Assembly: GCA_963844885.1 (NCBI GenBank)
Contig: CAWJQA010000018.1
Coordinates: forward strand, 208,675 to 272,674
Direction: 5' to 3'
Source: an uncultured Holophagales bacterium
GTDB taxonomy: Bacteria > Acidobacteriota > Thermoanaerobaculia > Multivoradales > UBA5704
Length of the DNA: 64,000 bases
A program made the translations under genes and the position numbers. Below the pieces are notes generated by a model. It was not told where the DNA came from and did no database searches. It was given only the letters and a program-made list of their open reading frames with translations. Positions 4,903-31,111 of the stretch are shown here, piece by piece (the first letter of the stretch is position 1; each line of letters begins with the position of its first letter).

Positions 4903-4912
4903 ACAGCGCGCC

Positions 4913-6274: not shown

Positions 6275-6549
6275 AGCCAGCCAGTCGAAATCTCTGGCTT
6301 GAGCTCGCTGCGCTCTGTCTGTTCCTCTTTAGCCTCGTTCTGTTCTTGCTCACAATGTTTTCCGTAGCGACCTTTTTCATGAGCGGTCTTTTGCCCGACG
6401 AGTCGTCGTCGGCGGGAGTCAAGGTGGTGGTCAGCATCGAGGAGGTGCTGGTGGCAGCTCTATCCACCCTTGTTCCCGGCCTGGCCCTGGTCGCGACGGC
6501 CTGGGGACTGCGCTCGCTCCTGGTCGACGAAAAGGAGCCCGACGCATGA
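6271..6549 (+). CDS. Small hypothetical membrane protein (about 3 TM segments)
   Basis: 92-aa ORF with a GTG start overlapping the upstream TGA. Its stop overlaps the next ATG. It has hydrophobic stretches LWLELAALCLFLFSLVLFLL and LVPGLALVATAW. Confidence 0.5.
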   Translation: MKPASRNLWLELAALCLFLFSLVLFLLTMFSVATFFMSGLLPDESSSAGVKVVVSIEEVLVAALSTLVPGLALVATAWGLRSLLVDEKEPDA

Positions 6550-10115: not shown

Positions 10116-10136
10116 CTGAGCCCCGCAGGAGGACCC

Positions 10137-14578: not shown

Positions 14579-16926
14579 CCCGTCCCGCGGCGCGCCTGCT
14601 TCTGCTTGCCGCTCTGGCCTGCCCTGCCGGAGCCTGGGCGGAGGGTCGCCACATCGCGATCGTCCTCGACACGTCGGGCTCCATGGATTCCAACGATCAG
14701 CCCCGGTACACGGTGCAGCTCTCACAGGTGATCTCCGACCTGCTGAACGACGGCGACGAGCTCAACGTGATCCGCATGAAGGACGATTCGTCCTGCTCCG
14801 CCGGCGCCTCGTCGTCCCTCGCCTTCACCCTGGACCCGGGGGACCGGCAGAGCTTCAAGCGGCGCCTGGACCAGGAGATCGCCTACGAGACGGGTACCTA
14901 TTTCGCGGCGCCGATCCGCACCGCGGCGGCCCTGCTCTCCGGTAGCCCGGACTCGCAGCGGATGCTCCTGGTAATCGCCGACTCCGGCGGCCTAGGCTCG
15001 TGCGAGGACGAGCTCACGCGGATCCTCCTGGACCTGAGGCAGAAGGGGGTCACCGTCGCGGCGATCAACCTGGGAGGCACGGCGGGCGCATTCGACAGCA
15101 ACCCGGCCTTCGCCTTCACCACGTCCGCCCTGGACGCCCAGGGCCTGATCGAAGCCGTGGCTCAGGTCTACCAGAAATTCCTCGGCGCGAAGACGGTCCA
15201 GACCGGCCGTGTGCAGGGCCCGATCGAGGTAGATGTCGCGCCATTCGTGGACGAGGCGTTCCTGGTGGTGGCCGCCGACGGTCCCCTGAGCGCCGTCGAG
15301 CCGGCGGGCGGCAACCCCGGCGCTGCGGCCGTCGACCCCGACCACCGCGGCGGCGGAAGCACCCAGGGCCTGGACGGCCGGACCCGCGCCTACCGCATCG
15401 TGCGGCTGGAGCGGCCGGCCCCGGGACGCTGGACGTTCAACGTCCCCGGCCTGTCCGCAACCGCGGGCTGGATGCTGCTTCAGGACTCGTCCGTGGGGCT
15501 GCGCCTGGTGTCGTCCCCAGACATGCCTCGCGGTATCGCTACTCCCATGGAGGTCGAGGTCTTCGACCAGAAGACCGGCAAGCGCATCACGGATCTGTCG
15601 CAACTGCCGGGCCTGAGCGTCACGCTCGACGTGGATGGGAAAAAGGTCACGTTTCAGGACGGCGGACAGGACGGCGACCGCGTACCGGGAGACGGCATCC
15701 TGACGGCCATGACCACCCTCGACCAGGCCGGCGCGCGCAAGCTTCCAGTACGCCTGGAGAGCGACCTCCTGGACCGCACGGTGGAGGTCGAGACCCGGGT
15801 TCTCGACGCGGCCTGGAGCCTCGCCGTGAAGACGCCGCCGAAGGCTACGGTGGACCATCCCGTGCTTCTTGAGGTAGAGCTGAAACCCTTCGGTGATCCG
15901 TCCCGGCTCAAACCGCCCGAGCGCATTGACGCGCTCACCGGCGGCCCGGCGGTAGGCCTGCGCGACGACGGTTCGGAGGGAGACCGCACGGCCGGAGACC
16001 GGATCTACTCGCGCCGCTGGATACCCGCGGAGGTGGGCAGCTTCAAAGTCGAGTACGCACCCATCGGCGGGAGCACCTCTCTGCGCGGCGCCGCTCCGAT
16101 CGAGGTGTTGGGCCGGCTGGACTTCGGACCCCTGCGCCCCATCCGGCTCGGGCAGGCTTGCAGTGGAGCCGAAGTGGGTGACCGCCTGGAGCTCGGCGCG
16201 GCCACCGTCCGCGGTGGCTTCGACGCGACCGTGAGCAGCTCGTTCGAGCTCGACCGGACGGCGCTGGAGATCGACCTCGGCGACGGCTGGGTGCTGCTCG
16301 GGAGCAAGCCCCTGCCGCTACGTCTGACCGAGAGCGGTCCCCGTGCCTGGCCGGTGCGGCTGCGGGTCGGCTCCTGTCCGGAAGGGAACCCGAAGGGTAG
16401 GCGGTTCGACATTGTCCTCGAAGCCGCCGGTCCGGACGGCAAGCCGCTGAAAGCCAACGTTCCGCTGGAAGTGGTCGTGATCGAGGATCCATGGCTGCGC
16501 TGCTGGTGGCCGGTGCTGGCCGCCGGAGCCGGCATCGTGCTGGCCGGCGTCCTGGTGCATGGGTTCTGGTCGCCGTCGCGCTTCTCACCCCGTCTGGGCG
16601 TGACCCTCTCGCCGGAGGAGGACTTGACCGAGGGCTTCTTCCATCCCATCCGCGCCCAGCGAGGCACGGGAAGTGGCTTCTACAGGGACGCGCGGGTGTT
16701 CATCCGCCAGGACTTCCGCCTCTCGGGCAACGCTCGTGAAGCCCTGGCGCGTCTGCGTGCCGATCACAAGCTGGTGCGGATCCAGCCGGTCCACGGCACC
16801 GCGCTCTGGCGCCAGAACGCCGAGGGAGCCTGGGAGCAGGTGCCGCCCGCCGAGACCACCGCCCGCTTCGGCGACCTCTACCGCAACGACACGGGAACGC
16901 TGTTTTTCGAGATTCGGAACGCCTGA
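14575..16926 (+). CDS. Secreted/periplasmic vWA (MIDAS) domain - beta-rich region - single TM - cytoplasmic tail
   Basis: 783 aa with an ATGA overlap to the upstream gene. The signal peptide is ..LLLLAALACPAGAWAEG. IAIVLDTSGSM is a canonical DxSGS MIDAS, followed by MLLVIADSGG. The TM segment is WWPVLAAGAGIVLAGVLV. The tail FYRDARVFIRQDFRLSGNAREALARL...GDLYRNDTGTLFFEI is paralogous to that of the 10137 gene. Confidence 0.85.
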   Translation: MTRPAARLLLLAALACPAGAWAEGRHIAIVLDTSGSMDSNDQPRYTVQLSQVISDLLNDGDELNVIRMKDDSSCSAGASSSLAFTLDPGDRQSFKRRLDQEIAYETGTYFAAPIRTAAALLSGSPDSQRMLLVIADSGGLGSCEDELTRILLDLRQKGVTVAAINLGGTAGAFDSNPAFAFTTSALDAQGLIEAVAQVYQKFLGAKTVQTGRVQGPIEVDVAPFVDEAFLVVAADGPLSAVEPAGGNPGAAAVDPDHRGGGSTQGLDGRTRAYRIVRLERPAPGRWTFNVPGLSATAGWMLLQDSSVGLRLVSSPDMPRGIATPMEVEVFDQKTGKRITDLSQLPGLSVTLDVDGKKVTFQDGGQDGDRVPGDGILTAMTTLDQAGARKLPVRLESDLLDRTVEVETRVLDAAWSLAVKTPPKATVDHPVLLEVELKPFGDPSRLKPPERIDALTGGPAVGLRDDGSEGDRTAGDRIYSRRWIPAEVGSFKVEYAPIGGSTSLRGAAPIEVLGRLDFGPLRPIRLGQACSGAEVGDRLELGAATVRGGFDATVSSSFELDRTALEIDLGDGWVLLGSKPLPLRLTESGPRAWPVRLRVGSCPEGNPKGRRFDIVLEAAGPDGKPLKANVPLEVVVIEDPWLRCWWPVLAAGAGIVLAGVLVHGFWSPSRFSPRLGVTLSPEEDLTEGFFHPIRAQRGTGSGFYRDARVFIRQDFRLSGNAREALARLRADHKLVRIQPVHGTALWRQNAEGAWEQVPPAETTARFGDLYRNDTGTLFFEIRNA

Positions 16927-16953
16927 TGCCGGCCGAAGGCCGAGGAGCTTTGC

Positions 16954-19900
16954 ATGAGTGAGAACGGAGAATACCGCAGCGGTCAGGGCACCATCATTCC
17001 CAGGCTGTTCATCGGCCTCGGGGGCGTGGGCTCGCGGATCGTCGACCGGATCGCCGGACGGACGGCCTACCTGCCCAACTGGGAGAGCCAGCTTCGCCCG
17101 CTCACCAACTTCATCTCGATCGACACCAACGAGCTCGACCAGCACAAGCTCAAGCATGTGCCGGACGGCAACCGGTTGAACATCGCCGCGTTCGACAAAG
17201 CCAAGGCCATCGAATACCTGCGGCGCTCCAAGGATCCGCAGGCTCTGCAGTGGCTGGACCGTGGATATCAACCGCGCCCGGTTTCAAGCCTGGCGCCGGC
17301 CAGATCCGGGTGGAAGCGCGCCTCGGCTTTTTCTATCACTCCCTGGAGATCCGCCAGCGCATCAAGGAGCTGATCCATGAGACGCTGCGCCCCGGCATCA
17401 CGTGGCGGCAGTCGAACCCGCCGAAGTACAACGTGTATCTGTTCTGCACGCTCGCCGGCGGCACCGGCTCCGGCAGCTTCCTCTCGGTGGCCTATCTGAT
17501 CAACGCACTGCTAGGCGAGCAGGGGTGGCAACCCCGGGTCATCGGCAACCTGCTTCTGTCCACGCTGATGCTGGACCAGGTCGGCCCCGAGCTCCACCCC
17601 GACATCCACGCCAACACCTACGCGGCGCTCAAGGAGTTGGAGCACCTCACCAAGCTCGACTACAAGCAGGTGAAGGACGAAGGCCGTGTCTCCGATCAAT
17701 TCGTCTACTGCCGGGACGAGAACAACCGGGCGGTGCAGAACGTCGCAACGCGTCCGTTCTTCCTGTCGTTCGTCTTCGACCGTCCCGCGCACCTCGGCCT
17801 GCCGAATCCCGAGACGGCCATCGCGGACGCGGCGTTTCTCCAGATCTTCACGCCGATCATCGACAACCTGGCCGGCGAGCTCGACAACTACGAGAAGAAC
17901 CTCGAGGGACTGACGCGCTTCCCCGGCGATCTCAAGAACGTAGGCCTTGGCTATACCAAGAACTTCGGAGCGTTCGGCGCCGCCGCTCTGGTGCTGCCCG
18001 GCCACGACTTCCTGGAGTACGCCGTGGCGCGCTTCGCCGCGCAGGCGATCCGCAGCCAGATCACCTTCGGCGCCGATCCGGCCAACCCCGGCGACGATCG
18101 GGCGCGCGCCCTGGCGCGGCTGGCGGTCGACTACTCGGACCCCAAATTCCTCAACATGTCGGACGAAGGGCGGGAGCGGACGATCAACCAGTCGTTCCTC
18201 TCCTCGGTGCAGGAGATGGCCCGCCAGGACGAGCGGCAGGAGCTTCTGGAGGGCTACTGGTACCGGCTGGCGGAGTCGGTCGACCAGGGCCGCAAGACCG
18301 GCGTCGACGACAAAGGCGAGGAGGTCCGCGGCGAATCGCAGATCCGCTGGGTAGAGCGCAAGCTGGAAGAGACCCGCCGCGACCTGCTCAACCGGGTGTC
18401 GATCAAGGAGAGGGCGTTCGTCTTCCACCGCGAAGGAGTGAACCAGTACGTGGAGCTGGTCAGCCGGCTGATCGAGGACATCCGGGGCGCGCGCCAGATC
18501 GTGGACGAAGGGGTGCGCGGCCTGGAGGCCGCCGCCCTCGAAGGCGAGGTCGTCTCCGAGCTGAAGCTCGATCCAATCGCCGAGCGCTACCTGGCGATCC
18601 GGCTGCTCGACCGTTGTGAGCAACAGTGGATCCCCGAGGCCCAGCAGCAGCTCGAAAAGGCCCGCGCCCGTGACATCGGCAACCCCAAGGTCCGCGAGCG
18701 GCTGGAGCGCGAGCTCTTCGAGTCGCTCCAGGAGGCGGCCTCGAAACGCGCGATCTTCAACCGTGATCAGGCGTTCCTGAGCGTCCGCGACGAGGCCCAG
18801 GAATACTTCCGCAGCGTGGCCACCGCGGCCCGCAATACCTTCGACGCGGAGATCCGGCTGCGGCAGCTCCGGTCCCTCCTGGAGTACCTGCAGCGCCGTT
18901 CGCGGCAGTACGCCCGGCTCGCCACCCGCATGGACGCTCTGGTGCAGGATCTGGAGCGCGACGCCGAACGCCTGCGCCGCGGCGAAGCCGCCGTGGTCGC
19001 TCCGCTCGCCCTGCGCGTCGAGGTCTTCGAGACGCTCGACGAGCCCCACCGCCGCATCTGGGACCGCGTCTACCTGGCGCTCTTCGTCGAGGGTGGGCGC
19101 TACATGGCCACCTTCGACCGCCAGGCGCTCGCTGAGACCATCTCCCGCGAGCTCAAACCGGTCGTACGCGGCGACGGTACCGTGACGGAAAAGACCCTGG
19201 ACCAGACGGTCAACGACCTGCGCCGCGCCCTGCGCGAGTTGGGCGCTCAGCGGCTGCGCCCGGCCATCCTCGGCGGCGACGGGCAGCCCGGGCTCGACCT
19301 CGTGCGCGGGTTGGAGCTGGAGGGCCGCTTGATCCTCCAGCCCGGCAAGCCGCCGGGCCAGGAGGTCACCGAGGACGAAATCGACGAGTACCGCCGCAAG
19401 AAGTTCCGCGCCCTCGCCCAGGTGGCCGGTGTGCTGGCCCGGGTCAGCTCCACCGAGACCAAGGCCCTGGACGACGGCGTGAAGACGAACCGCACCCGCC
19501 AGCTCATCGTGGGCATCGGCGCCGGCGGCGGCACCGCCTCCCAGCGTTTCGTCGACGAGCTCAACGCCGTACTGGCGACGAGCGGCCGGCAGGTCAAGGA
19601 GGACGAGTGGCACGATCCGCGGATCGCCATCGTCCACGACGTGGAGATGCCGATCCCGCTCTACTACATAGAGCCGGTGACCTCCGAGATCGAGGACGCC
19701 TACCTCGCCCTCGCCGCGGACGAGCGCCGCGCCTACAACCTCCACACGGACTACAACTGGGAACGGTCGCTGCCCAATCTGAACCCCCGCCGTTCGGAAA
19801 TCACCGTGGGCTGGTCGCTGCGCATGCTCGCCGAGGGCCTCCTCACCCACGTCGTCGGCCGGCAGGACGGCTTCTGGGTCTGGCAGATCGACGGCAGCGG

Positions 19901-20246
19901 CGAGGTCGAGCGGCTCGGACGAAACCTGTCGAGCACCCTCTACCGCCTGGGCGAGATCCACCGCATCGAGGATCTCCAGAAGAGGTTGGAGGCGCGGCTC
20001 CGCGAGGCGAAGTCGCTGGTGGACTTCGCGCGGGAGGAGCAGCGGCGCAAGGAGATCCGCGAGCTCGCTGACTCGCTCCTCGCCGCCATGGGCCGGCGCG
20101 AACTGCACGGAGAGATGGCCCGCGAGGACAGTCTGGACCGCCCGATCCTGCGCGCCCTGCTGCAGGAGCTCGACCGTCCGGGCGACGACAGGACTTCGAT
20201 GGCCTCCCCCGATGAACGGCTCTACGAAGGGTTGCGGCTCCCGTGA
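16954..20246 (+). CDS. Giant tubulin/FtsZ-superfamily GTPase (Tubulin_2-like N-domain plus ~700-aa helical/coiled-coil extension); one frame break near 17272 as sequenced
   Basis: Track ORF 16954..17373 gives RLFIGLGGVGSRIVDRI (a GxGxxG nucleotide loop). Track ORF 17250..20246 gives GAGQIRVEARLGF and FCTLAGGTGSGSFLSV, the tubulin signature GGTGSG at 17457-17474. The two frames join at ..WLDRGYQP/APGFKPGAGQ.. if one nt is restored in caacc-gcg (17269-17276). Confidence 0.8.
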
Positions 20247-22738
20247 CGCCCGACACCTCGGTCTCGCCTCAGCGCGCCACGATCCTCGTCGGCTACGGCG
20301 AGCTCGGCCGCGACGTGCTTCGCCGCCTCCTGGCCAGCACCGCACTGCGGGGTGTGCTGGTCTGGGAGGAGCCTCACGGCGGCGCGGACGCCGCCGAGCG
20401 CTCGCTCCAGGATCTGGCCCTCCTCTGGGTGCGCGACCGTGTCGGCGCCGCAGGGCCGGAGCCGGAGGACGACACGCACGGGGAAAGCTCGTTCGAGATG
20501 ATGCGCGACCTTTACCGGCAGATCCAGCAGGTGCCCGAAGCCGGCAGCCCGGAAACCGACTTCGCCGAGGCCCTGTCCGCGGCGGCGGAGAAGCTGCTGT
20601 CGGCTTCGGTGCGGGCGTCGCGCCGCGGCGTCCTGCCGCTCGGCCTGGACGTGGTCGTGATCGCCCGACCCACCGGCCCCGAGGTGATCGGCAGCCTCGA
20701 CCGCATGCTCGTCCGCGGCATGGAGCGGCTGGCGAACAACGCCAATCTGGAGCGCGCGGTGCAGGGATCCGAAGCCCTGAGCTTCCTCAAGATCCTGGAC
20801 TTCGAGAACTACTGGGACCGCGGCGACCGCGGGCGCAGGGTCCGCGAAGCGGTCCACAACTCGGTGGAGCAGTGGTGGAAGCGGCGGATCGACGGCAAGC
20901 CCGCCTTCAGCCGCTTCTATCTCGTGGACGGGCGCACCGCGGACGGCATCCGCGACACCTCGAATCGCATGGACGAAATCAGCCTCTTTCTCGAGCTTCT
21001 GCTCTTCGAGGGCCAGCGTAGCGGCACGCTCCAAAAGCTCTATCAGTCGCAAGGCGCCATCGAGTCGCCGCTGGGGACGTTCGGCATCCGCCTCATGGAG
21101 CGCAGCGCCGGCCTGTTGAGCCGCCTGGCTGCCGCGCGCTTCGGCGTCGGCTGGCTCGCCTACCTGGCGCAGGACGGCGCCGGCACCGGCGGCCGGCCGG
21201 CGGAGCACCTGCGCACACGGCTCGCACCCTATCAGCCAGCCGAGCTGGACCGGCTGCTCGGCCGCGACGAGCTGCGCGCCCTGGTGGATGCCGAGCTGGC
21301 AGCCCTGGAGGCGGAGCTCGTGGCCATCCCGTTCGACCTTCCGGACTGGCCGGAGCGCGTCCGCGCCAGTCACGGTAAAGCCTTGCGCCGTCTGGAAGCC
21401 CGCCTCTCCGAGCGCGTTCGGATCCGCATGGCCGAAATCGGCCGCGAGCGCCTGGCCGGGCTCGCGGAAGATCTCCACGCCGGCATCGAAGATGACCTTC
21501 ACGATTCGCGCGACCCAGTGCCCTTGGGCACCGTCCTCGCCGAGGTCGAGCGCACGCTCGACGATCTCGCGGGCAGAGAGGACGACTCGCCGCAGGCCCC
21601 TTCCGCGGACGCCCTGTTCGCCCGGGTCGCCTCCGTCCACTCCAGCTATCTCCGGTTCTCCTACGACCGCGTGAGCCCCGAGCATCTGCGCCGGTGGTGG
21701 CCGGTCCTCGGCATCGCCCTGTCCGCCGTGCTGACCCCGCTGGTCAGCGAGCTCCTGGCGGACGTTCAGAAACCCGACCCCTTGAAGCTCCTCCAGACCC
21801 GGGCGTGGGATCTTCTGCAATGGATCGCGAAGCCGCCGGTCGTCGGGATTCTCCTGTTCCTTGCCGCCTGGGGGCTCGGCGCCTGGCTTCTGCAACGGTC
21901 GGTCGCGGCGCGCATCGACCGCGCGCGGCGCTTCTTCAGCGACCCGCAGCGCGGTCGGTTCGTGGAGCGGCTGCGCCAGGGCCTGGAGCCGGGCGGCGCG
22001 CTACGCAGCCCTGTCGACCAAGCCGTCGACCGCATGGTGCGGGACATGTCCATCAGCGTCCGCGGAGAGGTTCGGCGCGAGCTGGCGCGGGCGGCGTCCG
22101 TGCTGCGGGAGCGCCGCCGTGAGCTTCTCTGGCTGCGCGAGCAGCTCCGCGAGCTCCTCCGGCTCCATGGCCTGTCGGCCGAGGAGCGCCAAAGCGACCT
22201 CGAACGCGTCCTGCGCAACAATACCGGCGTCACCGGCATCCGTTACTCTCTGGAGCGCGCCGAGGACTTTGAGCGCATGCTACGGAGCAACCCTCCCAAC
22301 TCCGCGCGCTTCCGGTCGACCCAGGGCGCTCAGTCGCCCTTCAATGGCTGGGACCGCCGCTACAGCCGCGCGTTCCTCCACCCGATCACCTTCCTCGACA
22401 GACTGAGCCGCATCTACAAGGACCCGTTCCAGCAGGAGCTGGCGGTGCCCGGCACCGGCCCCGAGCAGCAGCGGCGAGCCGACGAGCTCCTGGAGTTCCT
22501 GCGCCGCCAGGGCTCTTTCGACCTGGCCTTCCAGTGGAAGGCAGAGGCGGGCGTCTCTCCCGACCGCCGCTTCTGCCTCCTGCCCACCATATGGCGCCAG
22601 CTTCCTGGTGTCTTGCCGACGCTCTCCGGCCTGCGAGTAAGCGAGGAGTCAATCCTCCCGGGGAGTGACGTAGCGCGCGCCTACCTGCTGCGGGTACAGA
22701 CCGGCGTCGAGCCGGAATGCCTTCTCAAGAAACGGTGA
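20243..22738 (+). CDS. Large hypothetical protein, possibly a degenerate tubulin-like partner, with two central TM segments
   Basis: 831 aa. The GTG start overlaps the upstream TGA. ATILVGYGELGRDVLRRL parallels FIGLGGVGSRIVDRI of the upstream protein. VVVIARPTGPEVIGSL (20663-20683) sits where GGTGSG would be. Hydrophobic segments are WWPVLGIALSAVLTPLV and VVGILLFLAAWGLGAWLL. The functional call is by-eye and weak. Confidence 0.55.
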   Translation: MTPDTSVSPQRATILVGYGELGRDVLRRLLASTALRGVLVWEEPHGGADAAERSLQDLALLWVRDRVGAAGPEPEDDTHGESSFEMMRDLYRQIQQVPEAGSPETDFAEALSAAAEKLLSASVRASRRGVLPLGLDVVVIARPTGPEVIGSLDRMLVRGMERLANNANLERAVQGSEALSFLKILDFENYWDRGDRGRRVREAVHNSVEQWWKRRIDGKPAFSRFYLVDGRTADGIRDTSNRMDEISLFLELLLFEGQRSGTLQKLYQSQGAIESPLGTFGIRLMERSAGLLSRLAAARFGVGWLAYLAQDGAGTGGRPAEHLRTRLAPYQPAELDRLLGRDELRALVDAELAALEAELVAIPFDLPDWPERVRASHGKALRRLEARLSERVRIRMAEIGRERLAGLAEDLHAGIEDDLHDSRDPVPLGTVLAEVERTLDDLAGREDDSPQAPSADALFARVASVHSSYLRFSYDRVSPEHLRRWWPVLGIALSAVLTPLVSELLADVQKPDPLKLLQTRAWDLLQWIAKPPVVGILLFLAAWGLGAWLLQRSVAARIDRARRFFSDPQRGRFVERLRQGLEPGGALRSPVDQAVDRMVRDMSISVRGEVRRELARAASVLRERRRELLWLREQLRELLRLHGLSAEERQSDLERVLRNNTGVTGIRYSLERAEDFERMLRSNPPNSARFRSTQGAQSPFNGWDRRYSRAFLHPITFLDRLSRIYKDPFQQELAVPGTGPEQQRRADELLEFLRRQGSFDLAFQWKAEAGVSPDRRFCLLPTIWRQLPGVLPTLSGLRVSEESILPGSDVARAYLLRVQTGVEPECLLKKR

Positions 22739-22740
22739 CC

Positions 22741-25641
22741 ATGGACATGCTCGACCAGATCCTGCTCCCCTTCGGCTTTCTCGCGGCTGCCGCAGCCGTG
22801 GCATACGGCGCGGACCGCGCCGCGCTCGCCCGCCGCAGGGACGGCGACCGGGGCGATTTCTGGGCTCGGATCGTCCAGTGGCTCTGCCTGGGCCTCGGAG
22901 TCCCCCTGCTCCTCTCGGGCTTCCTGCAGACGCTCTTTCCGCGGTACTGGCGCCTCGGCCGGCACCTCCAGCTCGATCTGACAGGCGCCTTCGGCTGGAC
23001 GCTGGAAACTTGCTACCGTCTGGCGCTCTTCCTGCCCTTCGCGGCTTGGCTCGCATTGCTGGCCTTGGGCCTCGCGCGCAAGCCGGGGGACCGCGACGAG
23101 GCGCGTTGGCTCGCGGGAGGGATCGGCTTCGGCGGCTCGCGGCTCTGGGTCCTCCTGTGCGCGGCCCCCTTCGCCATCCTCCTGGTGCTGACGCCCGACC
23201 GTCTCGGAGGCGGCGACGGCGCCTACCCCGGCGCCTCCTGGGCGACGGCGGCGGTGCTCCTGCTCTCTCTGGCCGGCGTCGCCCTGAGCGCAGGACGGCC
23301 GGAAGCGGCGCCGTTGGCCCGTCCCGCCGGCTCGTCCCAAGCCACGGCCCCCCCGTCTCTCCAGCCCTGGCCGCAGGCGCTCGCTACGCACGGCGTGAGC
23401 GTCCGCGGAGTAACTTCGTGGTCCGCCAGCGGCCCCGCCCGCGCGCCCCGGCCGGTCGCCGGCAGCGACCTGGCCGAGCGGCTCCGCCACCTGGGAGCGG
23501 GCGAGGTGGCGCCGGAGTTGGTCGAAGCTGTGGGCGCTCTCCTGGAGAACGGGCCAAACGAGGGCGAGCACGGCCCGGCCCGGATCGTCTTCGCCCCCGA
23601 CCACTGCGGCCAGATCGAAACCGTGGCTGTGGCCGCCGCCATGCTGGAGCAGCGGTTCCACGCCACGACCCTCGTGGTCACCGCCCGCGACGCCGAGGCC
23701 CTGGCGGACCAGTTCCGCCTCTGGCTGCCGGCACCCGGCGCCGTCGGCGTCTTCGCCGGCACGGGCGAGCCTCCCTGGGGCGCGGTGGTGTGGATCGTCG
23801 AAGCCCAGATCCTCTCTGACCGGCTGCTCCCGATCCTCAAGGACCCCCTCCAGGCGCGGCGATTCGGCTTCATCGTCTGGTGGCACCTGGAGGCCTTCAG
23901 CGGCGTCTTCGCGGCCAATCTGTGGGCGATCTCGCGGCGGCTCCACCGCCTCCTCCAGGCGCTGGGGCGGCGCGACGTCCGCACGCTGGCCCTGGTCCGT
24001 AGCGCCCCGCACGGCGCGGCCCAGCTCGCCTCGTTCGTGCGGCGCCTCCTTCCGCACTCCTTTCCGGGCGGCGCGGAGGTCCACGTCAGCCAGCGATTCC
24101 CACGCCAGGTCTACCTTCACGCGCTGGAGTCCCACCAGGGCTACTTCGCCCGGGGGGAGGGACGGGATGTCCAGGAGCGCCACCGGCACCTCCCGCTGAT
24201 TGCCGCCCGGGTCTCCGCCGATGAGGGCTGGCCGACGGTCCTGGAGGTCCCGGCCGACGTGGCCAGGCCCGACATCGAAGCCGTTCTTCAGCTCGCGTCC
24301 GGAGGGTCGGTCCTCCGCGACCGCCTGGAGACCGACCCGAGCCGCGCCGGAGCGCGTCTCCTCGGTGTCGAGGCCGGCGATATCCTGTCGCTGCCGGAGA
24401 TCGTCAGCCAGGGTGGACGCTGCGCTCCCGCGGGCCTGCCGCATCACGTGGGGCTCTCGCTGCCGCCGAACCCGTACGCGGCCCACCTCGTCGACCGAAT
24501 GGCGGAAGCCGACGCCGCCTTCCCGACCTCCCGCCGCCTGGTCGCCGCCGAGGCGCTCTCCACTGTGGTCCGCCGGCACCTCCTCCTGGCCCTCAACGAG
24601 CTGCCCGACACCCGCAGCGGGCTGCTCAAGGACTTCCTCTGGAACGACGAGGTCATCAGAAGCACGCTGGACGAGATCGCCCGCGACGGCAAGCTCGTCC
24701 GCCGCGAGGTGCGCTTCCTCACCGAGGGCGGACGCCTGCGGATCGATCACGAGTACAGCAGCCAGCGCCCGCCCAACGACGAGCAGCGCCCGCTCGACAC
24801 GGTAGGTTCCTGGCTGGTTGACGTCCGCGAGCTGGCCGGCGGCTACGACGGCGGCGGCGTGCGTCTGCGCGTCGATCCCGAGCGGCTGACCATCCAGGCC
24901 TACCCGAACCGCGTGTTCCTCCAGGACGGCCGGCGCTACCGCGTGCGCGACTGGAGCTCGATCGAGTCCGTGCTCCGCAGCCGCTCGATCGCCTGCGACC
25001 GCGAGGACGTCCACAGTCTCACCTGGCGCATCCGCAACCCTCTCGTCTTCGGCATCGAGCCGTCGCGGGCGCCGAGCGGCGTGGGCCGTACCGGCAAGCT
25101 CCTCACCTGCTTCCCGGCCCGCCTCACCTACGAGGAGGAGGTGGTGGGAGCCCTGCGGTTGGCGCCGGACCTGGGCACCGGCCTGCCGCCGCGCACCGAG
25201 ACACTGCGCCTCGCGCGGCCGATCACCCAGAGCTTTTCCACCCGTGCCCTGATTCTGCGCTTCCCGGATGAAGAGGAGCACGTCGCTCTCGCGTCGCTCG
25301 CCCAAGCTCTGCGCCACGTCCTCCCCGTCCACCTCGGCGTCGACGAGGACGCGCTCGAGGTCGTGCCGCTAACCGGTGAGATCATCAGCGACCTGCCCAC
25401 CTACGGTCTCGCCGTGGTCGACCTCTACCCCGGTGGCATCGGTCTCGTGGACGAGATCGGCGACGACAGCCCCTTCCTGCTCCAACTCCTCGAATGGACC
25501 GACGGCTGGCTCAAGGCTTGTCCTTGCCAGAGCGACGCCGGCTGCGACCGCTGCCTGCGCTCGCCGGCCGCGCTGGCGGCCAACATCGATCAACCCCCAC
25601 TGCGGAAGGCGGCCCTCGGCCTCCTCCGTCAAGTCCTTTGA
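22741..25641 (+). CDS. Five-TM N-terminal domain fused to a helicase-like core with degenerate Walker A, and a C-terminal DUF1998 (MrfA/YprA-type Zn-binding) domain
   Basis: ATG 22741 lies 2 nt after the upstream stop (alternatives: GTG 22735, ATG 22717). Five hydrophobic segments lie in the first ~190 aa. ARIVFAPDHCGQIETVAV lacks GK[ST], and GFIVWWHLEAFSG sits at the DExH position. The C-terminus VVDLYPGGIGLVDE...CPCQSDAGCDRCL...NIDQPPLRKAA (Cys cluster 25519-25554) matches the DUF1998 pattern. Confidence 0.7.
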   Translation: MDMLDQILLPFGFLAAAAAVAYGADRAALARRRDGDRGDFWARIVQWLCLGLGVPLLLSGFLQTLFPRYWRLGRHLQLDLTGAFGWTLETCYRLALFLPFAAWLALLALGLARKPGDRDEARWLAGGIGFGGSRLWVLLCAAPFAILLVLTPDRLGGGDGAYPGASWATAAVLLLSLAGVALSAGRPEAAPLARPAGSSQATAPPSLQPWPQALATHGVSVRGVTSWSASGPARAPRPVAGSDLAERLRHLGAGEVAPELVEAVGALLENGPNEGEHGPARIVFAPDHCGQIETVAVAAAMLEQRFHATTLVVTARDAEALADQFRLWLPAPGAVGVFAGTGEPPWGAVVWIVEAQILSDRLLPILKDPLQARRFGFIVWWHLEAFSGVFAANLWAISRRLHRLLQALGRRDVRTLALVRSAPHGAAQLASFVRRLLPHSFPGGAEVHVSQRFPRQVYLHALESHQGYFARGEGRDVQERHRHLPLIAARVSADEGWPTVLEVPADVARPDIEAVLQLASGGSVLRDRLETDPSRAGARLLGVEAGDILSLPEIVSQGGRCAPAGLPHHVGLSLPPNPYAAHLVDRMAEADAAFPTSRRLVAAEALSTVVRRHLLLALNELPDTRSGLLKDFLWNDEVIRSTLDEIARDGKLVRREVRFLTEGGRLRIDHEYSSQRPPNDEQRPLDTVGSWLVDVRELAGGYDGGGVRLRVDPERLTIQAYPNRVFLQDGRRYRVRDWSSIESVLRSRSIACDREDVHSLTWRIRNPLVFGIEPSRAPSGVGRTGKLLTCFPARLTYEEEVVGALRLAPDLGTGLPPRTETLRLARPITQSFSTRALILRFPDEEEHVALASLAQALRHVLPVHLGVDEDALEVVPLTGEIISDLPTYGLAVVDLYPGGIGLVDEIGDDSPFLLQLLEWTDGWLKACPCQSDAGCDRCLRSPAALAANIDQPPLRKAALGLLRQVL

Positions 25642-25653
25642 GGACCGGACATC

Positions 25654-26889
25654 ATGTTCAGACCCAAGATCCACGGCGAGCTCGAAACCATCCACGAGCG
25701 CCTGCGCGGCTGGGAGACCTCGGTCCCGGCGCGCGCCCGTCGCTTCCACGCTCTGCGCGGAAGCCTGGAGGAGCAGGCCCGCAAGCTCCTGGGTCAGTTC
25801 GTGGTCTGGAGCGGGAACGAGACCCTCCAGCGGCTCAAGGACCGGACCGACCGGCTCAGCATGGTTGCCGAGCCGCTGGCGACCCTGATTCGGGACGCCG
25901 AACGCCTCGAACAGGAGATCAAGCTCCTCGCCCAGCGTGCCCGGGACGCCGGCAGTCCCGAGGTCGCTCGTGGCCTCGAGCAGCGCTGCCGCGACTGGTC
26001 CATCCTCATCGGCAGCCTGGGTACGGACTGCGACCGGGAGCCGGAGCTGCAGCGCGACCAGCTCCGCCTGCGCGGCACCGAGGAGGTGGTCCGCCTCCAC
26101 GACCAGGCGGTTTCCTGGCTCCAGGAGGCCCGGCGGGTGCTCTCCGACCTGGGCTCGGACCTCAAGGCCGCGCCCCTGGCCGCGGCCCTCCCGGACTTCG
26201 ACCTGCGTCTCCTGCGCGACGGCGCTACTCTGGAATGGGTTCAGGAGCTCAAAATGCTGGTCCAGCCGCTCAAGGATCTGGCCCGCCGCATCCAGGACCC
26301 TCCCCAGGAGCTCAAGACCGTGTCGCTGCTCCTCACCGACCTCCGCGGCTGGTCGCGGCAACTCAAGGAGAAGGAGGACCGCGTCGAGCAGCTCAAGCAG
26401 CGGCACCACTTCTACGCGGCGGACTGGAGCCCGGCCGGCCTCGACGACCTCGCCCGCGATGCCGAAACACTCCGCGACGAGCTAGTGGCCCAAGCCCGCG
26501 ATTTGCGCCGGCGAAAGCTCGAAGAGCTCAAGGACCGGGTCGAGGAGCTCATCCAGGCCTGCGGCCCACAGCCCGAGCTGGACGAGCGCATGTCCGAGGT
26601 CGAGACGCTGTCGTTCGACCGCTATCAACTTTTCCGCGAGTGGGCGGCCCGCTTCAAGCGTGTGGAAGACTACTTTCAGGCCATCGCCAACACCCATGAA
26701 GGTGCGCTCGAACGGCGCCTGTCCGAGCTCGTGGACGGGCTCCGCCAGGGCCTGGGAGCGCTCCGTTCCCAACCCCTTTCCGATCAGGTCCGCGGCGAGG
26801 CCGACGCTTTGAGCACGACCTGCGCGAGCTCGCCCAGATTTCCGGAGCCGAGCCGATGCTGCGCGCTCTCGGCCGGAGCGGCGAGATGA
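25654..26889 (+). CDS. Coiled-coil protein (hypothetical)
   Basis: 411 aa, rich in E/R/L/Q with long heptad-like stretches. The last ~25 aa (STTCASSPRFPEPSRCCALSAGAAR) look out of frame. The next gene's frame is already open from 26700, so the two ORFs may be one ~770-aa protein. Confidence 0.6.
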   Translation: MFRPKIHGELETIHERLRGWETSVPARARRFHALRGSLEEQARKLLGQFVVWSGNETLQRLKDRTDRLSMVAEPLATLIRDAERLEQEIKLLAQRARDAGSPEVARGLEQRCRDWSILIGSLGTDCDREPELQRDQLRLRGTEEVVRLHDQAVSWLQEARRVLSDLGSDLKAAPLAAALPDFDLRLLRDGATLEWVQELKMLVQPLKDLARRIQDPPQELKTVSLLLTDLRGWSRQLKEKEDRVEQLKQRHHFYAADWSPAGLDDLARDAETLRDELVAQARDLRRRKLEELKDRVEELIQACGPQPELDERMSEVETLSFDRYQLFREWAARFKRVEDYFQAIANTHEGALERRLSELVDGLRQGLGALRSQPLSDQVRGEADALSTTCASSPRFPEPSRCCALSAGAAR

Positions 26890-27962
26890 AGAGGACGCTC
26901 GACCGGCTCACGCGCCAGGCTCGGGAGGACTCCGAGGAGCTCTCGCGGCAGCAGGAAGCGCTGCGGGAAGCCTACCGGGATCTCCGTCTTCGGGCGAGTG
27001 AGGCCGGCCACACCCTTCCGGACCTCGCGGAGCGCATCGAGGATCTGTCGCGCGGCAAGGACGAGCCTTCGCTGGAGAGGGCGCGGCAACTCGCCGCCGA
27101 CCTTGCGGCCGAGCTGGACCGGCAGCGGCAGGAGGTGCTCCGGTGGTGCCGTTCGCTGCTCGACCGGCGGATGGCCGAAATCCGCGCCACCGCCGAGGCG
27201 CTGCGCCGCACCGGCACGCCCTTCACTCTTCCGGAAATCCCACTCCTGCAAGAAGACGCCAGCCCCGGCGACGCGATCCTGGCTCTGAAGCGCGCCGAAG
27301 AGGTCGGGGCCCTCCTTCTCGCGGCCGTGGAGACGGCGCTTCACTCCTGCGAAGAGCGGCGGCTCCAGGCCCAGGCCGCTCTCCAGCAGCTCCGTCCGGA
27401 GTCGCTCGGACCCGACGAGCGGGAGACCGTAGCTCAGCTTCTCCAGGAGCTGGACAAGGGATCCTGGGCCGACTCCGAAAACCTTGTCGAGCGCTTCGAG
27501 CTCCTGTCCCAGGTGGTCGAGATGTGTGACCTCCTCTTTCAGCGGCTGAACGAGGAAGAGCGCTCCGCCCGTTCCCGGCGCGAAGCCCTCCGCCGCCGGC
27601 TCCAACGCCACACCGAGAACCAGATGCGGCGTTTCTCTCCCGACCTCACCGACCGCGTCGCGGACCTGGTTTACGGCATCCCCGACGAGCCGGCCTCCTG
27701 GCGGGCTGTCCAGGAGCAGCTCGGCGTGGCGGAGCTCCTGCTCGCCCGCATCGAAACGCACGCGGCGCGCCTCGCGGCCGAAGAGCTCGACCGCGCCGCC
27801 GAAACCCTCCGCGGCCGGCGCGGCCGGTCCGCCACGCCCGAAGTCCGAACCCTTCTGGCCGATCTGGAGCGCTACTCCGACGAGGAGCTGCCGCCGGTGA
27901 TCCTGCGGACGCGCATTGTGAACGCGGCCCGGAAAGCCGCCCAAGGAGACCCCCGCCCATGA
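26886..27962 (+). CDS. Coiled-coil protein (hypothetical); possibly continuous with the preceding ORF
   Basis: ATG 26886 overlaps the upstream TGA (ATGA). 358 aa of E/R/L/A-rich helical sequence. Its stop overlaps the next ATG. Confidence 0.6.
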   Translation: MKRTLDRLTRQAREDSEELSRQQEALREAYRDLRLRASEAGHTLPDLAERIEDLSRGKDEPSLERARQLAADLAAELDRQRQEVLRWCRSLLDRRMAEIRATAEALRRTGTPFTLPEIPLLQEDASPGDAILALKRAEEVGALLLAAVETALHSCEERRLQAQAALQQLRPESLGPDERETVAQLLQELDKGSWADSENLVERFELLSQVVEMCDLLFQRLNEEERSARSRREALRRRLQRHTENQMRRFSPDLTDRVADLVYGIPDEPASWRAVQEQLGVAELLLARIETHAARLAAEELDRAAETLRGRRGRSATPEVRTLLADLERYSDEELPPVILRTRIVNAARKAAQGDPRP

Positions 27963-29641
27963 CACCCGGCAGCCCGCTCCCGGCCTGGCCCGCACTCGAC
28001 GCGGGCGACCATCCTTTTCCTCAACGTCTCGGCTACGAGCGCGCGGTCTGGGGCAAAGTCCACGCCTCTCCCGGAGACTATCGATGGATCGCGGCCTCGC
28101 CGTCCTTCGCCCCCGCCCTCCAGCAGATCGAGCGCGAATTGCAGCTCGGCAGCGAGGACGTGCCAGAGCGGGCCACCCACTGGCGCAACACCGGCGAGCA
28201 CTGCCTCGCCATGGTCTGCTACCCCAGCCGCGCCGCCGACGCCGCCGGCCGTTCCAACTTCCTGGAAAAGCAGATCCTTGCCTGGAGGCGCCCCGCCGAG
28301 GTTCCGGCGGTGCTCGGAGCCCTCCTCCTCTTGCCGCGGATCGCGCAGGCGGATGACGACATCTGGTGGGACAAGCCCGCGCAGAGCCGCTGGTCGGAGG
28401 ACGACACCCTTTCCATCCCTCCGGAGGACCATCCGCCCGTCCCCGTTTCACCGGATACGCTCGCCGAAGCCGTCGCCCGGGGGACGGCCGAGCTGCGTGC
28501 AGCCCTCCACGAAGACTCCCTCACCGATCTTTACGCCCACATCCTGGCCGGTCATCGCGCCGTGCCCCTGGCCGGCCTCGCCGCGCCGCTCGGCCCTGAA
28601 GCCGTGGCCGCCCTCCTGCTGCCGCTCCCGCGCGCCCTCGCCGACGGCTACTCCGTCGCCGGCTGGCTCCCTTCGCGGCGGTTGCCCGACCTGGCCGAGC
28701 TGCAGCGGTGCTGGGGCGTCGTGCTCGGAGGCGCCACTCTGCCGCCGCCACCGCCCGTGTCGCCGTCTCCCGAACAGCGCCGCCAGGCGCAGACGCTGGC
28801 CCAGGCCATCCTGGCCAACGACCCGGCCATCCTCACCGGCGCGCCGACCCCTGCCGCCGCCCCGGTGGCTGTTTCCGGAGGCCCTTCCCCGATCCGCCTC
28901 GCCATGTGGGGCCCCTCTTCCGCCGGCAAGACGGCGCTCCTCGCCAAGCTCTACCTGGAAGACGACGAAGAGATCGACTGGGAGGTCTTCCCGACCGCGA
29001 CCTCGCTCCAATTCATCCAGGACATGCGCGCCCACATGCGGACGAGCAACGCCTTCCCGCCGGCCACTACCGGCTCCGTCGAACAGATCGAATATCAGTT
29101 CCGCCACCGCTTGGCCGGAACCGAGGCCTCCCTCCGCCTGGAAGACCGGGCCGGCAGCGAGTCCGAGAAACTCACCGACGCGATCCGCGTGCAGCTAGGC
29201 GAGGCGCACGGGCTCGTCCTCGTCTTCGATCCCCTGGCCGAAGGGTCGTCTCTGGAAAGCCAGGTCTGGCGTACCCTCGAGCACGTCCACGTGGCGAGCG
29301 GCCGGCGCGTCCACAAAGACAGCCGCCCCATCGCCGTCTGTGTCTCCAAGGCGGACGTCCTCATCGAGACGATCGACGACCTGAGGAGCGCGCGGGAAGA
29401 CCCCGACGGCTTCGTCCGCCGGCGTGATCGTATGGGCCTGGTCAAGGCTCTGGACCGGTTCTGCAGCAACTACCGGCTATTTCCCGTCTCCGCCGCCGGC
29501 ATCCGGGTGCGCCACGGTGTGATCGAGCCCGTGGTCTTCTACGATGAAGGCCTGAGCCCCCGCCTCTGTCCCGGAGGCCGTCCTCTCAACGTCAAGGCGC
29601 CTTTCGCCTGGCTTCTGGAACAAGTGACGAGTCGATCGTGA
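27959..29641 (+). CDS. Ras-like (TRAFAC-class) P-loop GTPase with a ~310-aa unknown N-terminal domain
   Basis: 560 aa. G1 is AMWGPSSAGKTALL (28910-28933), G3 is LEDRAGSE, G4 is CVSKADV and G5 is FPVSAAG. The N-domain (ERAVWGKVHASPGDYRWIAAS...) is repeated in the next locus. Confidence 0.75.
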   Translation: MTPGSPLPAWPALDAGDHPFPQRLGYERAVWGKVHASPGDYRWIAASPSFAPALQQIERELQLGSEDVPERATHWRNTGEHCLAMVCYPSRAADAAGRSNFLEKQILAWRRPAEVPAVLGALLLLPRIAQADDDIWWDKPAQSRWSEDDTLSIPPEDHPPVPVSPDTLAEAVARGTAELRAALHEDSLTDLYAHILAGHRAVPLAGLAAPLGPEAVAALLLPLPRALADGYSVAGWLPSRRLPDLAELQRCWGVVLGGATLPPPPPVSPSPEQRRQAQTLAQAILANDPAILTGAPTPAAAPVAVSGGPSPIRLAMWGPSSAGKTALLAKLYLEDDEEIDWEVFPTATSLQFIQDMRAHMRTSNAFPPATTGSVEQIEYQFRHRLAGTEASLRLEDRAGSESEKLTDAIRVQLGEAHGLVLVFDPLAEGSSLESQVWRTLEHVHVASGRRVHKDSRPIAVCVSKADVLIETIDDLRSAREDPDGFVRRRDRMGLVKALDRFCSNYRLFPVSAAGIRVRHGVIEPVVFYDEGLSPRLCPGGRPLNVKAPFAWLLEQVTSRS

Positions 29642-31111
29642 AAAATCTTTCGCAATGGCCTTCCCTCGCCGCCGGCACAGGAGCCGGCTGGCCCGACAAG
29701 CTTCATTACTCCCGCGCCGTCTGGGGAAAAGTCCACGGCGCCCGCTCGGACTATCGCTGGATCGCCCTCAGCGCCGGTTTAGTCCCCGAGCGGGACCTTC
29801 ACGAGCAGCTCAATGTGGGCGTCGAGGATGAACCGGAGTCGACATTGCTCTGGCGGAACCTCAGCGGACGCTGCCATGCCGTGAGCTGTTACTCCGAGCC
29901 GGGCCACGGATGTCTCGGGTCGAGGAAATTTCCTGGAAAAGCAGGTGCTTTCCTGGGACCGAAGTGACCTCCCGGCAGCCCTGGGAGCCCTGCTTCTCCT
30001 TCCGCACGCCGCCGGCCTCACCGACAGCCATCTGGTGGAGCCGCTACGAAGGCCAGCCCTGGACGGAGGAGGGCTTCTCCTTGCCGATCGAGGCTTCGGA
30101 CCATGAGCCGCTCCCCGTCAATCAAGAGACCTCGCCTCGACCATGAAAATGGGACTTGCCGAGATCCGGAGCAACTTCGGGATCGAGCCTCTCCAGACCC
30201 TTTATTCCGCTCTTCTTGCCGGCAGCAAACCAGCCTTTCTGACTGGCGCGCCCAGCCTCTGTCGGCCGCAGCGCTGGCGGCGCTCCTCCTTCCTCTCCCG
30301 CGCGAGCATGCCGACAGCCTTTCTCTGGCGGCCTGGGTCCCGTCACGCCGCGTCTCGGAGAAACAGGCAAAGCTCTGGGATGTCATCGTCCTTCCTCCCG
30401 GACGGGCTGATCTGGGGGTGAAGCCGGCCGTGGTGGATCGTCATTGCCGGGACGAGGGACGGCGTCTGGCTGAGTACTCCTTGGCCTGGGCTCTGAGCCT
30501 CTGGCGGGTCTGCCGCCGCAGTCCTTCGGGCCGGTGGAGGAACTCCCTTCGCCACCGAGAAAGCCGGAGCCGACCGCGGTGCCTTCCGGGCGGCCAGTCC
30601 CGGGACACACGATCGAGCTGAGGCCCCAGCTGCCCGGGGCGGTCGAAGCTTTGAAAAATCTCCACGCTTTCGCCATGCGCGACGGATCGCCGCTGGCTCG
30701 ATGCCGATGCGCTGGCGGGTTGAAGCCCGGCCAGATCCAGCTCCGGGATTCTCCGATCCCGGCTGGCTCCAAACTCTCCGATAAGCAGCGCCCCACCTGG
30801 GTGGACAAACACAGTGGGCCGTCAAGCTCGACCTGCTGCGCTGCGCCGCCCTGGTCCTCCACCCCCATCCTAACGCCGCCATGCCGAAGACCGTAAGATT
30901 CCGCCGCTCCATTTCGCCTATCGCTGTCCCGACCAATCTCGACCTTTTGGGCAACCTCGGACCGACGAAGCTCCAAGAGGCTCTGGAACAGAGTCTGAAC
31001 CTAGGGCGCAATCCGCGGACAAAAAGAATGAGGGAGCTTGCTCGTGCGCTGGAGAAACCGAGACGAAACGGCGGGATCTGGATATCAGGAGATGGTCGAG
31101 CGACACCTTGA
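29638..31111 (+). pseudogene. Decayed paralogue of the preceding gene (N-domain recognisable, P-loop lost), needing at least 4 frame changes
   Basis: GTG 29638 overlaps the upstream TGA. SRAVWGKVHGARSDYRWIALS..LLWRNLSGRCHAVSCY parallels ERAVWGKVHASPGDYRWIAAS..THWRNTGEHCLAMVCY. Homology continues in other frames: GNFLEKQVLSW..ALGALLLLP at ~29920-30000, and AALAALLLPLPREHADSLSLAAWVPSRR at ~30265-30350. At the expected P-loop position (~30612) the sequence reads IELRPQLPGAVEAL. The last open frame ends at 31111. Confidence 0.55.

Follow-up and report, generated by a model that had tools for sequence, protein, structure and literature searches.

A membrane-anchored, apparently catalytically dead branch of the MrfA/YprA helicase family in a bacterial FtsZl1-vWA-GTPase operon

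Introduction

Operons of the FtsZl1-vWA-GTPase type were defined in 2010 by Makarova and Koonin, who proposed that their products remodel membranes and whose supplementary tables give the gene order [B13][vWA][FtsZl1][B5][B12], in which 'B12' is uncharacterised (PMC2875224). In 2020 Kaur et al placed modules of tubulin and vWA proteins in conflict systems of the GAP1-N2-type DO-GTPase class, and stressed membrane association and the use of inactive domains as binders or decoys (PMC7159879). Neither the FtsZl1-vWA operons nor the DO-GTPase/tubulin systems have a demonstrated function, and several of their large membrane proteins are without an assigned fold. The YprA family of helicases was surveyed in 2025 in a text that makes no mention of transmembrane, tubulin, FtsZ or vWA (10.1101/2025.09.15.676423). 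In this paper we analyse a gene (the target) at positions 22741..25641 on the + strand of a 64,000-nucleotide stretch of DNA, hereafter the window, from an uncultured Holophagales bacterium (GenBank assembly GCA_963844885.1, contig CAWJQA010000018.1, positions 208,675 to 272,674). It encodes a 966-aa protein with five transmembrane (TM) helices and an inactivated MrfA/YprA-type module, a new membrane-anchored and apparently catalytically dead branch of a known helicase family that lies in a known but functionally unsolved type of operon. A literature search found no paper describing a membrane-anchored YprA branch, a result that holds for the searchable library and is no proof of absence.

Results

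Reading frame and family

The open reading frame (ORF) of the target runs from 22717 or 22741 to 25641 on the + strand. A start at 22717 adds eight residues that the homologues lack, and the database copy of the protein (P0001), which is identical to the target (100%) over 966 aa, starts at M9, that is, at 22741. G+C content around the gene is 70-72%, and long ORFs are therefore found in several frames; one of these, on the opposite strand at 22681-25332, was rejected as a high-GC artefact, since the homologues, Pfam and a ratio of nonsynonymous to synonymous substitution rates (dN/dS) of 0.21 relative to the nearest relative (locus L036) favour the + strand. Sixty-six close homologous clusters, of about 960 aa each, share the + frame of the target.

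A profile search of 1.84 billion representative proteins gave just 326 matches at E<=1e-3, so that ordinary soluble DUF1998 helicases fall below significance, and by this measure the family is well separated from them. Two samples are used for the family counts given below: 116 full-length representatives, obtained by clustering at 50%, which have the complete architecture and carry GQxE and VVWW (n=116), and a family set, A1 (n=47). Conservation is about equal across all domains of the target, and the residues that replace the helicase motifs are near-invariant, which argues that the protein is a re-purposed module under selection and is not decaying. The possibility that the target is itself a pseudogene was ruled out by its conservation and dN/dS; unlike three of its partner genes, it is intact in the window.

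A complete MrfA/YprA-type body

The AlphaFold2 (AF2) model of the target has a predicted local distance difference test score (pLDDT) of 87.1 and a predicted template modelling score (pTM) of 0.77. When it was used as a query in Foldseek, the top four matches were to MrfA (6ZNP/6ZNQ/6ZNS), with E-values from 1.9e-22 (6ZNP) to 1e-16 over approximately 800 columns, and the next matches, at approximately 1e-7, were to the superfamily 2 (SF2) helicases Hel308, Pol theta and Brr2. Alignment by hhalign of the family profile to five full-length MrfA-type helicases from Bacillota, Actinomycetota and Halobacteria, extracted by tblastn on plasmid records, gave a match at 99.2% probability (E 1.8e-19, 675 columns, query 229-972, template 30-774) that is colinear from the N-terminal region (NTR) through the last MZB helix. 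The match to MrfA is far beyond chance. The central region, for which the earlier note on this DNA had predicted a helicase-like core, has the two RecA domains of an SF2 core and is structurally closest to MrfA.

Pfam recognises a single domain in the target, PF09369 (MZB/DUF1998), which matches over the full length of the profile with 31.9 bits against a cut-off of 24.2 (E 2.3e-7); the assignment of the C-terminal Cys cluster to DUF1998 by the earlier note is thereby upheld. A phmmer search of the PDB sequences found Bacillus subtilis YprA/MrfA through the MZB domain; in the helicase core it paired FGFIVWWHLEAFSGVF of the target with LKYIVIDELHTYRGVF of YprA, and it weakly paired IVWWHLEAFSGVF with IVIDELHTYRGVF of YprA/MrfA. 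In the AF2 model RecA2 is followed by three helices and a hairpin, a small barrel, a long three-stranded sheet and a helical zinc domain, which fits the WH-OB-CON-MZB layout described for MrfA (PMC7797055). The cytoplasmic module is a complete, colinear MrfA/YprA-type body in the order NTR-RecA1-RecA2-WH-OB-CON-MZB/DUF1998.

From hhalign, Foldseek and a residue map against MrfA, a RecA1-like domain was placed at about aa 280-445 (23578..24075, with boundaries approximate from the model) and a RecA2-like domain at about aa 446-605 (24076..24555). The WH, OB and CON auxiliary domains follow in the MrfA order at about aa 606-842 (24556..25266), as judged from the AF2 secondary structure, hhalign and the residue map, and the MZB/DUF1998 domain, taken as the extent of the Pfam match, is at 25297..25557, where phmmer and the residue map agree with it. 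All of these are on the + strand. The RecA1-like domain is among the most conserved, with 44 of its 166 columns at >=90%.

State of the helicase motifs

The residue numbers of the MrfA chains in the PDB differ by 2 from those published for MrfA. The residue map places the degenerate motif I, APDHCGQIE, at 23593..23619, the degenerate motif II, WWHLE, at 23878..23892 (where phmmer and conservation also support it) and the Cys4 zinc cluster, CPCQSDAGCDRC, at 25519..25554, all on the + strand and exactly where the earlier note had them. That note had taken the first to stand at the Walker A position and the second at the DExH position, and the map agrees on both: in the target MrfA G81 corresponds to Gly and K82 to Gln, and D185, E186 and H188 are replaced by Trp, His and Glu. 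Across the family the Gly of motif I is kept in 47/47 members and the Ser/Thr position is variable, while at the K82 position there is Gln in 110 of the 116 representatives, Glu in five, Gly in one and Lys in none (Gln in 43/47 of set A1). Motif Ia, PTK, has become A/G/D. In motif II the D185 position is an invariant Trp, E186 is represented by His, Asp, Asn or Gln, and H188 by Glu; the most conserved block of the family, ANLWAISRRLHR, lies just after it, and further conserved blocks of the target are VDPERLTIQAYP and LPVHLGVDEDAL.

The remaining motifs are altered to different degrees. Motif III, SAT, is L-A-F/L in the family and LAL in the target; R298 of motif IV remains basic (Lys/Arg); R333 of motif IVa is Gly or Asp; motif V is lost and unrecognisable in the family; and in motif VI (GRAGR) the first Arg is Gln and the second is retained (R560, 113/116). 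The equivalent of MrfA R491, which anchors the DNA-encircling 'rope', is Leu in 108 of the 116. The hinge between MZB and RecA1 is kept, MrfA Y690 and I694 corresponding to Y896 and I900 of the target. All four Cys residues of the target align to Cys of MrfA, and the Cys4 cluster is complete in 84/116 representatives and partly or wholly lost in the rest.

The predicted ATP-binding and hydrolysis residues (motifs I, II, III, V and half of VI) are thus swapped for residues that are themselves conserved, and several of the residues with which MrfA clamps single-stranded DNA (ssDNA) (motif Ia, R333, R491) are likewise replaced. In MrfA, K82A and DE185-186AA abolish function in vivo (PMC7797055), and from this together with the loss of motifs we infer that the target is unable to act as an ATP-driven helicase or translocase, in keeping with the non-catalytic role that the earlier note had suggested. 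Because the R491 equivalent is lost and MrfA R491A nearly abolishes DNA binding (PMC7797055), any binding of ssDNA by the target is probably not of the canonical kind.

The membrane domain

The earlier note had also described the protein as membrane-embedded with five TM segments, and hydropathy, AF2 helices and a positive-inside count agree on this. The N-terminal membrane domain (aa 3-182; 22747..23286, + strand) contains five TM helices: Kyte-Doolittle (KD) hydropathy identifies five hydrophobic 19-mers inside aa 3-185, which coincide with long AF2 helices at 3-31, 38-65, 88-112, 131-150 and 164-182. Counts of Lys and Arg per loop in the 47 family members are approximately 3 in the TM1-2 and TM3-4 loops and 1.2 and 0.5 in the other two, and under the positive-inside rule this bias predicts an N-out/C-in topology in which everything after TM5, including the helicase-like part, is cytoplasmic. 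The domain is more than a greasy anchor, given invariant Trp, Pro and Arg positions (W41, P99, R134, W136, W167). A 25-residue linker of low conservation joins it to the cytoplasmic module.

The operon in the window

The genes from 10137 to approximately 30500 are all on the + strand and overlap or abut, and the operon is conserved and probably co-translated. No excess of promoter- or terminator-like sites was found across it, no tRNA was found in the region, and Rfam gave no family near the target. The first gene (10137..12296), for which the first gene of L036 is the orthologue, encodes a secreted vWA-like protein with a signal peptide, a DxSxS metal ion-dependent adhesion site (MIDAS), a choice-of-anchor-X domain, a C-terminal TM segment and a cytoplasmic tail. 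It is followed by a gene for a protein of about 755 aa (12293..14578, the start being approximate from the L036 alignment), with a signal-peptide-like N-terminus, a C-terminal TM segment and no known domain, and by a gene for a secreted vWA protein (14575..16926; VWA_2, 33.9 bits) with a signal peptide, DxSxS, choice-of-anchor-X domains and a C-terminal TM segment. The FtsZl1/Tubulin_2 gene (16954..20246) is split by a 1-base deletion near 17278; Pfam recognises Tubulin_2 (E 2.2e-32), with matches on both halves, and the tblastn frames and the indel map against L036 agree.

Directly upstream of the target, at 20243..22738, is a gene for an 831-aa protein without a Pfam match, whose AF2 model (pLDDT 85) consists of an N-terminal domain of about 320 residues with a tubulin/FtsZ fold, a long helical bundle and two hydrophobic helices. 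Foldseek matches it to tubulins, FtsZ, CetZ and BtubB at marginal E-values of 1e-3 to 4e-2, and the bundle with its hydrophobic helices resembles alpha-pore-forming toxins (SmhB, AhlB, MakA) and dynamin-like stalks. The tubulin fold is visible from structure only and not from sequence: hhalign of this protein with the Tubulin_2 family of the operon aligned only a 26-residue T1-loop-like stretch, at 3.7% probability, from an alignment in which some ORFs were wrong (spurious high-GC). On the model, the protein may be a membrane-inserted subunit of cryptic tubulin-like character, the second of its kind in the operon, and the fold suggests a machine with two tubulin-like proteins.

Directly downstream of the target is a coiled-coil-type gene of about 770-820 aa (25654..27962), split by a 1-base deletion near 26807. 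It is followed by a DO-GTPase2 gene (27959..29641), whose product scores 29.3 bits with Pfam PF19993 (cut-off 27) and has its P-loop, GPSSAGKT, intact, and by the last gene of the operon (29638..30483), a paralogue of the N-terminal 300 or so residues of DO-GTPase2 that has no P-loop and carries several frameshifts. The P-loop-less paralogue is also present at L036 (19391-20875) and L001 (17078-18499). It might be a stand-in for the missing GAP1 partner, to which no similarity could be shown. In the clade of the target, a Pfam search at E<=1 of the operon proteins, the downstream genes and the N-terminal half of DO-GTPase2 found no GAP1, and BLASTP of the operon proteins against the GAP1 protein of an outgroup locus, L005, gave nothing significant; a visual likeness of 'YRWIAASPSF' to GAP1-N was dropped.

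Upstream of the operon are genes for an AbiEii toxin (91-1218), a pentapeptide-repeat protein (4790-6274) and a caspase-like CHAT protein (6546-8510), a neighbourhood that is defence-island-like. G+C content is 66-72% in the operon (10000-30000) and 58-64% in the flanks at 2-10 kb and 32-50 kb, a contrast that may indicate horizontal acquisition; tblastn against plasmid and phage collections gave no match that would point to a mobile origin. An Acido-Lenti-1 small RNA at 1628-1673 on the - strand, which scores 38.8 bits with Rfam RF01687 (gathering score 37), fits an origin in Acidobacteriota.

Distribution and deeper relatives

A scan of one genome per species of GTDB gave 24 loci. Carriers in Acidobacteriota belong to Thermoanaerobaculia, Terriglobia and Bryobacterales, and those in Gammaproteobacteria include Competibacteraceae, Methylococcaceae, Chromatiaceae, Thiosymbion and the cultured Lamprocystis purpurea DSM 4197. 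The order of tubulin gene, gene of about 830 aa and target is preserved in every locus with enough flanking sequence, and metagenomic contigs agree; the coiled-coil and GTPase genes then follow in most loci. Recurrence beside Tubulin_2 and vWA genes, which the earlier note had proposed to look for, was found in all loci examined. The target behaves as a fixed subunit for which, by gene order, membership of the operon appears obligatory. In L. purpurea (L028, NZ_KB902491), a purple sulfur bacterium, the genes for the tubulin, the protein of about 830 aa, the target homologue and the coiled-coil protein and the GTPase genes stand in the same order, with a partial vWA gene at the edge of the stretch analysed. 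This cultured carrier makes experiments feasible.

Deeper relatives of the target have the same four to five N-terminal hydrophobic segments with similar spacing. Eight of them (P0164, P0170, P0182, P0185, P0192, P0195, P0205 and P0206) retain GK[ST] in motif I, and the others have GR[ST]; motif II is acidic but non-canonical (EDxE/H), and P0164 matches Pfam DEAD and YprA of the PDB directly (E 5e-9). The slot two genes after Tubulin_2 is also held by these branches, whether with GK[ST] (P0164, P0170), with GRR, or fused to a transglutaminase or a zincin; for P0185, which is on a short contig, only the upstream gene of about 860 aa is visible. Because relatives bearing GK[ST] share the TM anchor and the operon slot, membrane anchoring appears to be older than the loss of the Walker A Lys. 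Transglutaminase-like or zincin peptidase domains replace or follow MZB at the C-terminus of P0180, P0189, P0191, P0203, P0187 and P0197. P0191 (L037) and P0203 (L040) occupy the same slot after Tubulin_2, and no DO-GTPase gene was seen in the short sequenced stretch downstream of either. In the outgroup locus L005 a clear GAP1-N2 gene lies directly after the helicase-like gene (E 7.9e-21).

Discussion

We consider it probable, from sequence and gene order, that the target serves an FtsZl1-vWA-GTPase system as an adaptor or sensor subunit that is tethered to the membrane and works without ATP. The five-helix, N-out/C-in domain would hold the dead helicase body on the cytoplasmic side of the inner membrane, as one of a set of envelope-spanning products that would comprise two or three secreted single-pass vWA-type proteins with cytoplasmic tails, FtsZl1, the tubulin-fold hairpin protein, the pseudo-helicase, the coiled-coil protein, DO-GTPase2 and its P-loop-less paralogue. 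The body would act as an ATP-independent, membrane-tethered adaptor or conformational platform, with the vWA proteins that face the periplasm and the hairpin protein in the membrane coupled through it to the assembly of FtsZl1, coiled-coil protein and GTPase in the cytoplasm. A protein partner is a likelier ligand for it than DNA in the canonical groove, and retention of the MZB-RecA1 hinge suggests that the auxiliary domains, which resemble a canopy, may still be able to open and close around this ligand. The whole machine could be a membrane-remodelling system or a GTPase-thresholded conflict system; the second is mildly favoured by the AbiEii and CHAT genes that lie upstream and by a distribution that is patchy and crosses phyla.

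Several observations weigh against an adaptor role. Gene order is the sole evidence for a scaffold function. G290, Q291, E293, W380, W381 and R560 are nearly invariant, which fits a pocket that is still selected and makes binding of a ligand or nucleotide without hydrolysis possible, and the R298 position is basic (K/R), so that some contact with nucleic acid may persist. GAP1, the defining partner of DO-GTPase systems, was not detected in the clade of the target, and PADLOC-DB 2.0 finds no known defence system among the operon proteins, where it gives only weak local matches to the MZB region of DruE (E 1.9e-4) and to LmuB (E 3e-3). Finally, with three frameshifted partner genes the system may be non-functional in this organism.

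This last point leads to the alternative that survives best, namely that in this genome the target is the intact remnant of a dying operon and has no function. In its favour, comparison with L036, the closest relative (84.6% DNA identity) and one in which all genes are intact, reveals uncompensated, frame-breaking 1-base indels near 17278 in the Tubulin_2 gene and near 26807 in the coiled-coil gene, and the last gene has several. However, dN/dS is 0.12-0.24 for all genes of the operon, the broken ones included, and because it is low even in these the frameshifts are either very recent or assembly errors; errors of assembly typically take the form of single-base indels where runs are GC-rich, and relatives carry every gene intact. 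We regard loss of function in this one genome as a real but minority possibility.

It is also conceivable, though we think it rather unlikely, that the target is a nucleic-acid sensor, a dead helicase that binds ssDNA or RNA without translocation, for example phage DNA entering at the membrane, and so triggers assembly of the GTPase and tubulin. Retention of the entire WH-OB-CON-MZB canopy with its hinge, the basic residue of motif IV and the nearby AbiEii and CHAT genes would suit such a role, as would the membrane-associated surveillance proposed for DO-GTPase systems (PMC7159879). Most of the canonical backbone contacts, however, are replaced (motif Ia PTK by A/G/D, R333 by G/D, R491 by Leu, with motif V lost), the zinc site is dispensable in approximately 28% of the family, and scans of the operon proteins with Pfam and PADLOC revealed no nuclease or other nucleic-acid effector.

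A broader scenario, which we put forward as speculation and believe to be improbable as a whole, would have a YprA/MrfA branch anchored in the membrane and built into FtsZl1-vWA machines while still active, followed by stepwise loss from GK[ST] through GR[ST] to GQxE/WW. In the derived clade, the inactive protein would then serve on the cytoplasmic side as sensor or decoy for an immune device that spans the envelope, and in this device an invader, either DNA or a phage protein aimed at YprA-type helicases, would set off GTPase-gated polymerisation of two tubulin-fold proteins at the membrane. If true, this would be a cytoskeleton-based defence mechanism without characterised bacterial precedent.

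A pure decoy, in which an inactive YprA-like body mimics active defence helicases, traps phage proteins aimed at them and sets off the tubulin/GTPase machinery, seems very unlikely. Kaur et al argued that inactive enzyme copies in such systems are decoys or dominant-negative binders (PMC7159879), and the family would indeed be a catalytically dead copy of a helicase type used by several defence systems; but the argument is purely analogical, the most conserved surfaces are family-specific and are not common to DrmA/DruE, and the match to the MZB of DruE is weak and local. Least probable of all is that the target is still an enzyme, acting as a switch through nucleotide binding, and perhaps slow hydrolysis, at a non-canonical site formed by GQxE, WW and the motif VI Arg that is retained. 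The replaced motif residues are near-invariant and show no drift, which would suit such a role, but the Walker A Lys is present in 0/116, Trp stands in place of the Asp that coordinates Mg, motifs III and V have been lost and the corresponding MrfA mutants are inactive.

Comparison with known systems

MrfA is the best structural and profile match of the target, with which it shares the domain order, the Cys4 zinc cluster, the MZB-RecA1 hinge residues and a family-specific helix after motif II (ANLWAISRRLHR in the target, SHVANVIRRLKR in MrfA). The target differs in its five-TM N-terminal anchor, in the destruction of motifs I, II, III and V and the replacement of R333 and R491, and in that it lacks an MrfB-like exonuclease partner and sits in a tubulin/vWA/GTPase operon. 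It has two marks of the MrfA/YprA family, the MZB domain with Cys4 and the RecA core with the WH-OB-CON-MZB order, and lacks two, intact motifs and a soluble form with a nuclease partner; no MrfB, DrmC or fused nuclease was found among the operon neighbours by Pfam or PADLOC. ATP-dependent 3'-5' DNA helicase activity would likewise be absent. The defence helicases of the YprA family (DISARM DrmA/DrmB, Druantia DruE, Dpd and ARMADA) have an MZB/DUF1998 domain of the same family, but they are soluble, predicted to be active and accompanied by nuclease partners (10.1101/2025.09.15.676423), and the target adds a branch that the text of that survey leaves unmentioned. The pseudohelicase Utp25 is similar in that the SF2 fold is kept without catalytic motifs as a structural component, and different in that it is eukaryotic, soluble, active in ribosome assembly, of another SF2 subfamily and without a membrane anchor (PMC9539457). 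The present family, with its deeper relatives, provides a natural series for how a helicase becomes a non-catalytic module.

With the FtsZl1-vWA operons the locus shares a secreted vWA protein with MIDAS, FtsZl1/Tubulin_2 (E 2.2e-32) and a divergent P-loop GTPase, as well as a large membrane-associated protein encoded two genes downstream of FtsZl1. The published description of 'B12' fits those relatives of the target (P0203, P0187) that have a zincin and a zinc finger at the C-terminus, whereas the clade of the target lacks the peptidase and ends in MZB; the possible equivalence of the target with 'B12' is one of position and architecture only. The DO-GTPase systems of Kaur et al are alike in that they, too, have DO-GTPase2, two TM-bearing vWA proteins and a tubulin homologue that carries a long extension at its C-terminus; membrane association and the presence of enzyme domains that have lost catalysis are further points in common, and the outgroup relative L005 has GAP1-N2 as well. 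Those systems differ in that GAP1 is undetectable in the clade of the target, that the tubulin theme was reported from Firmicutes and Actinobacteria only and is found here in Acidobacteriota and Gammaproteobacteria, and that the text mentions no helicase-like partner and does not contain the term 'acidobacteria' (PMC7159879). To both kinds of system the present analysis gives a concrete, testable component: the product of the gene two places after the tubulin gene is a membrane-anchored body of MrfA/YprA type, apparently dead in the clade of the target and with a Walker A that seems intact in deeper ones.

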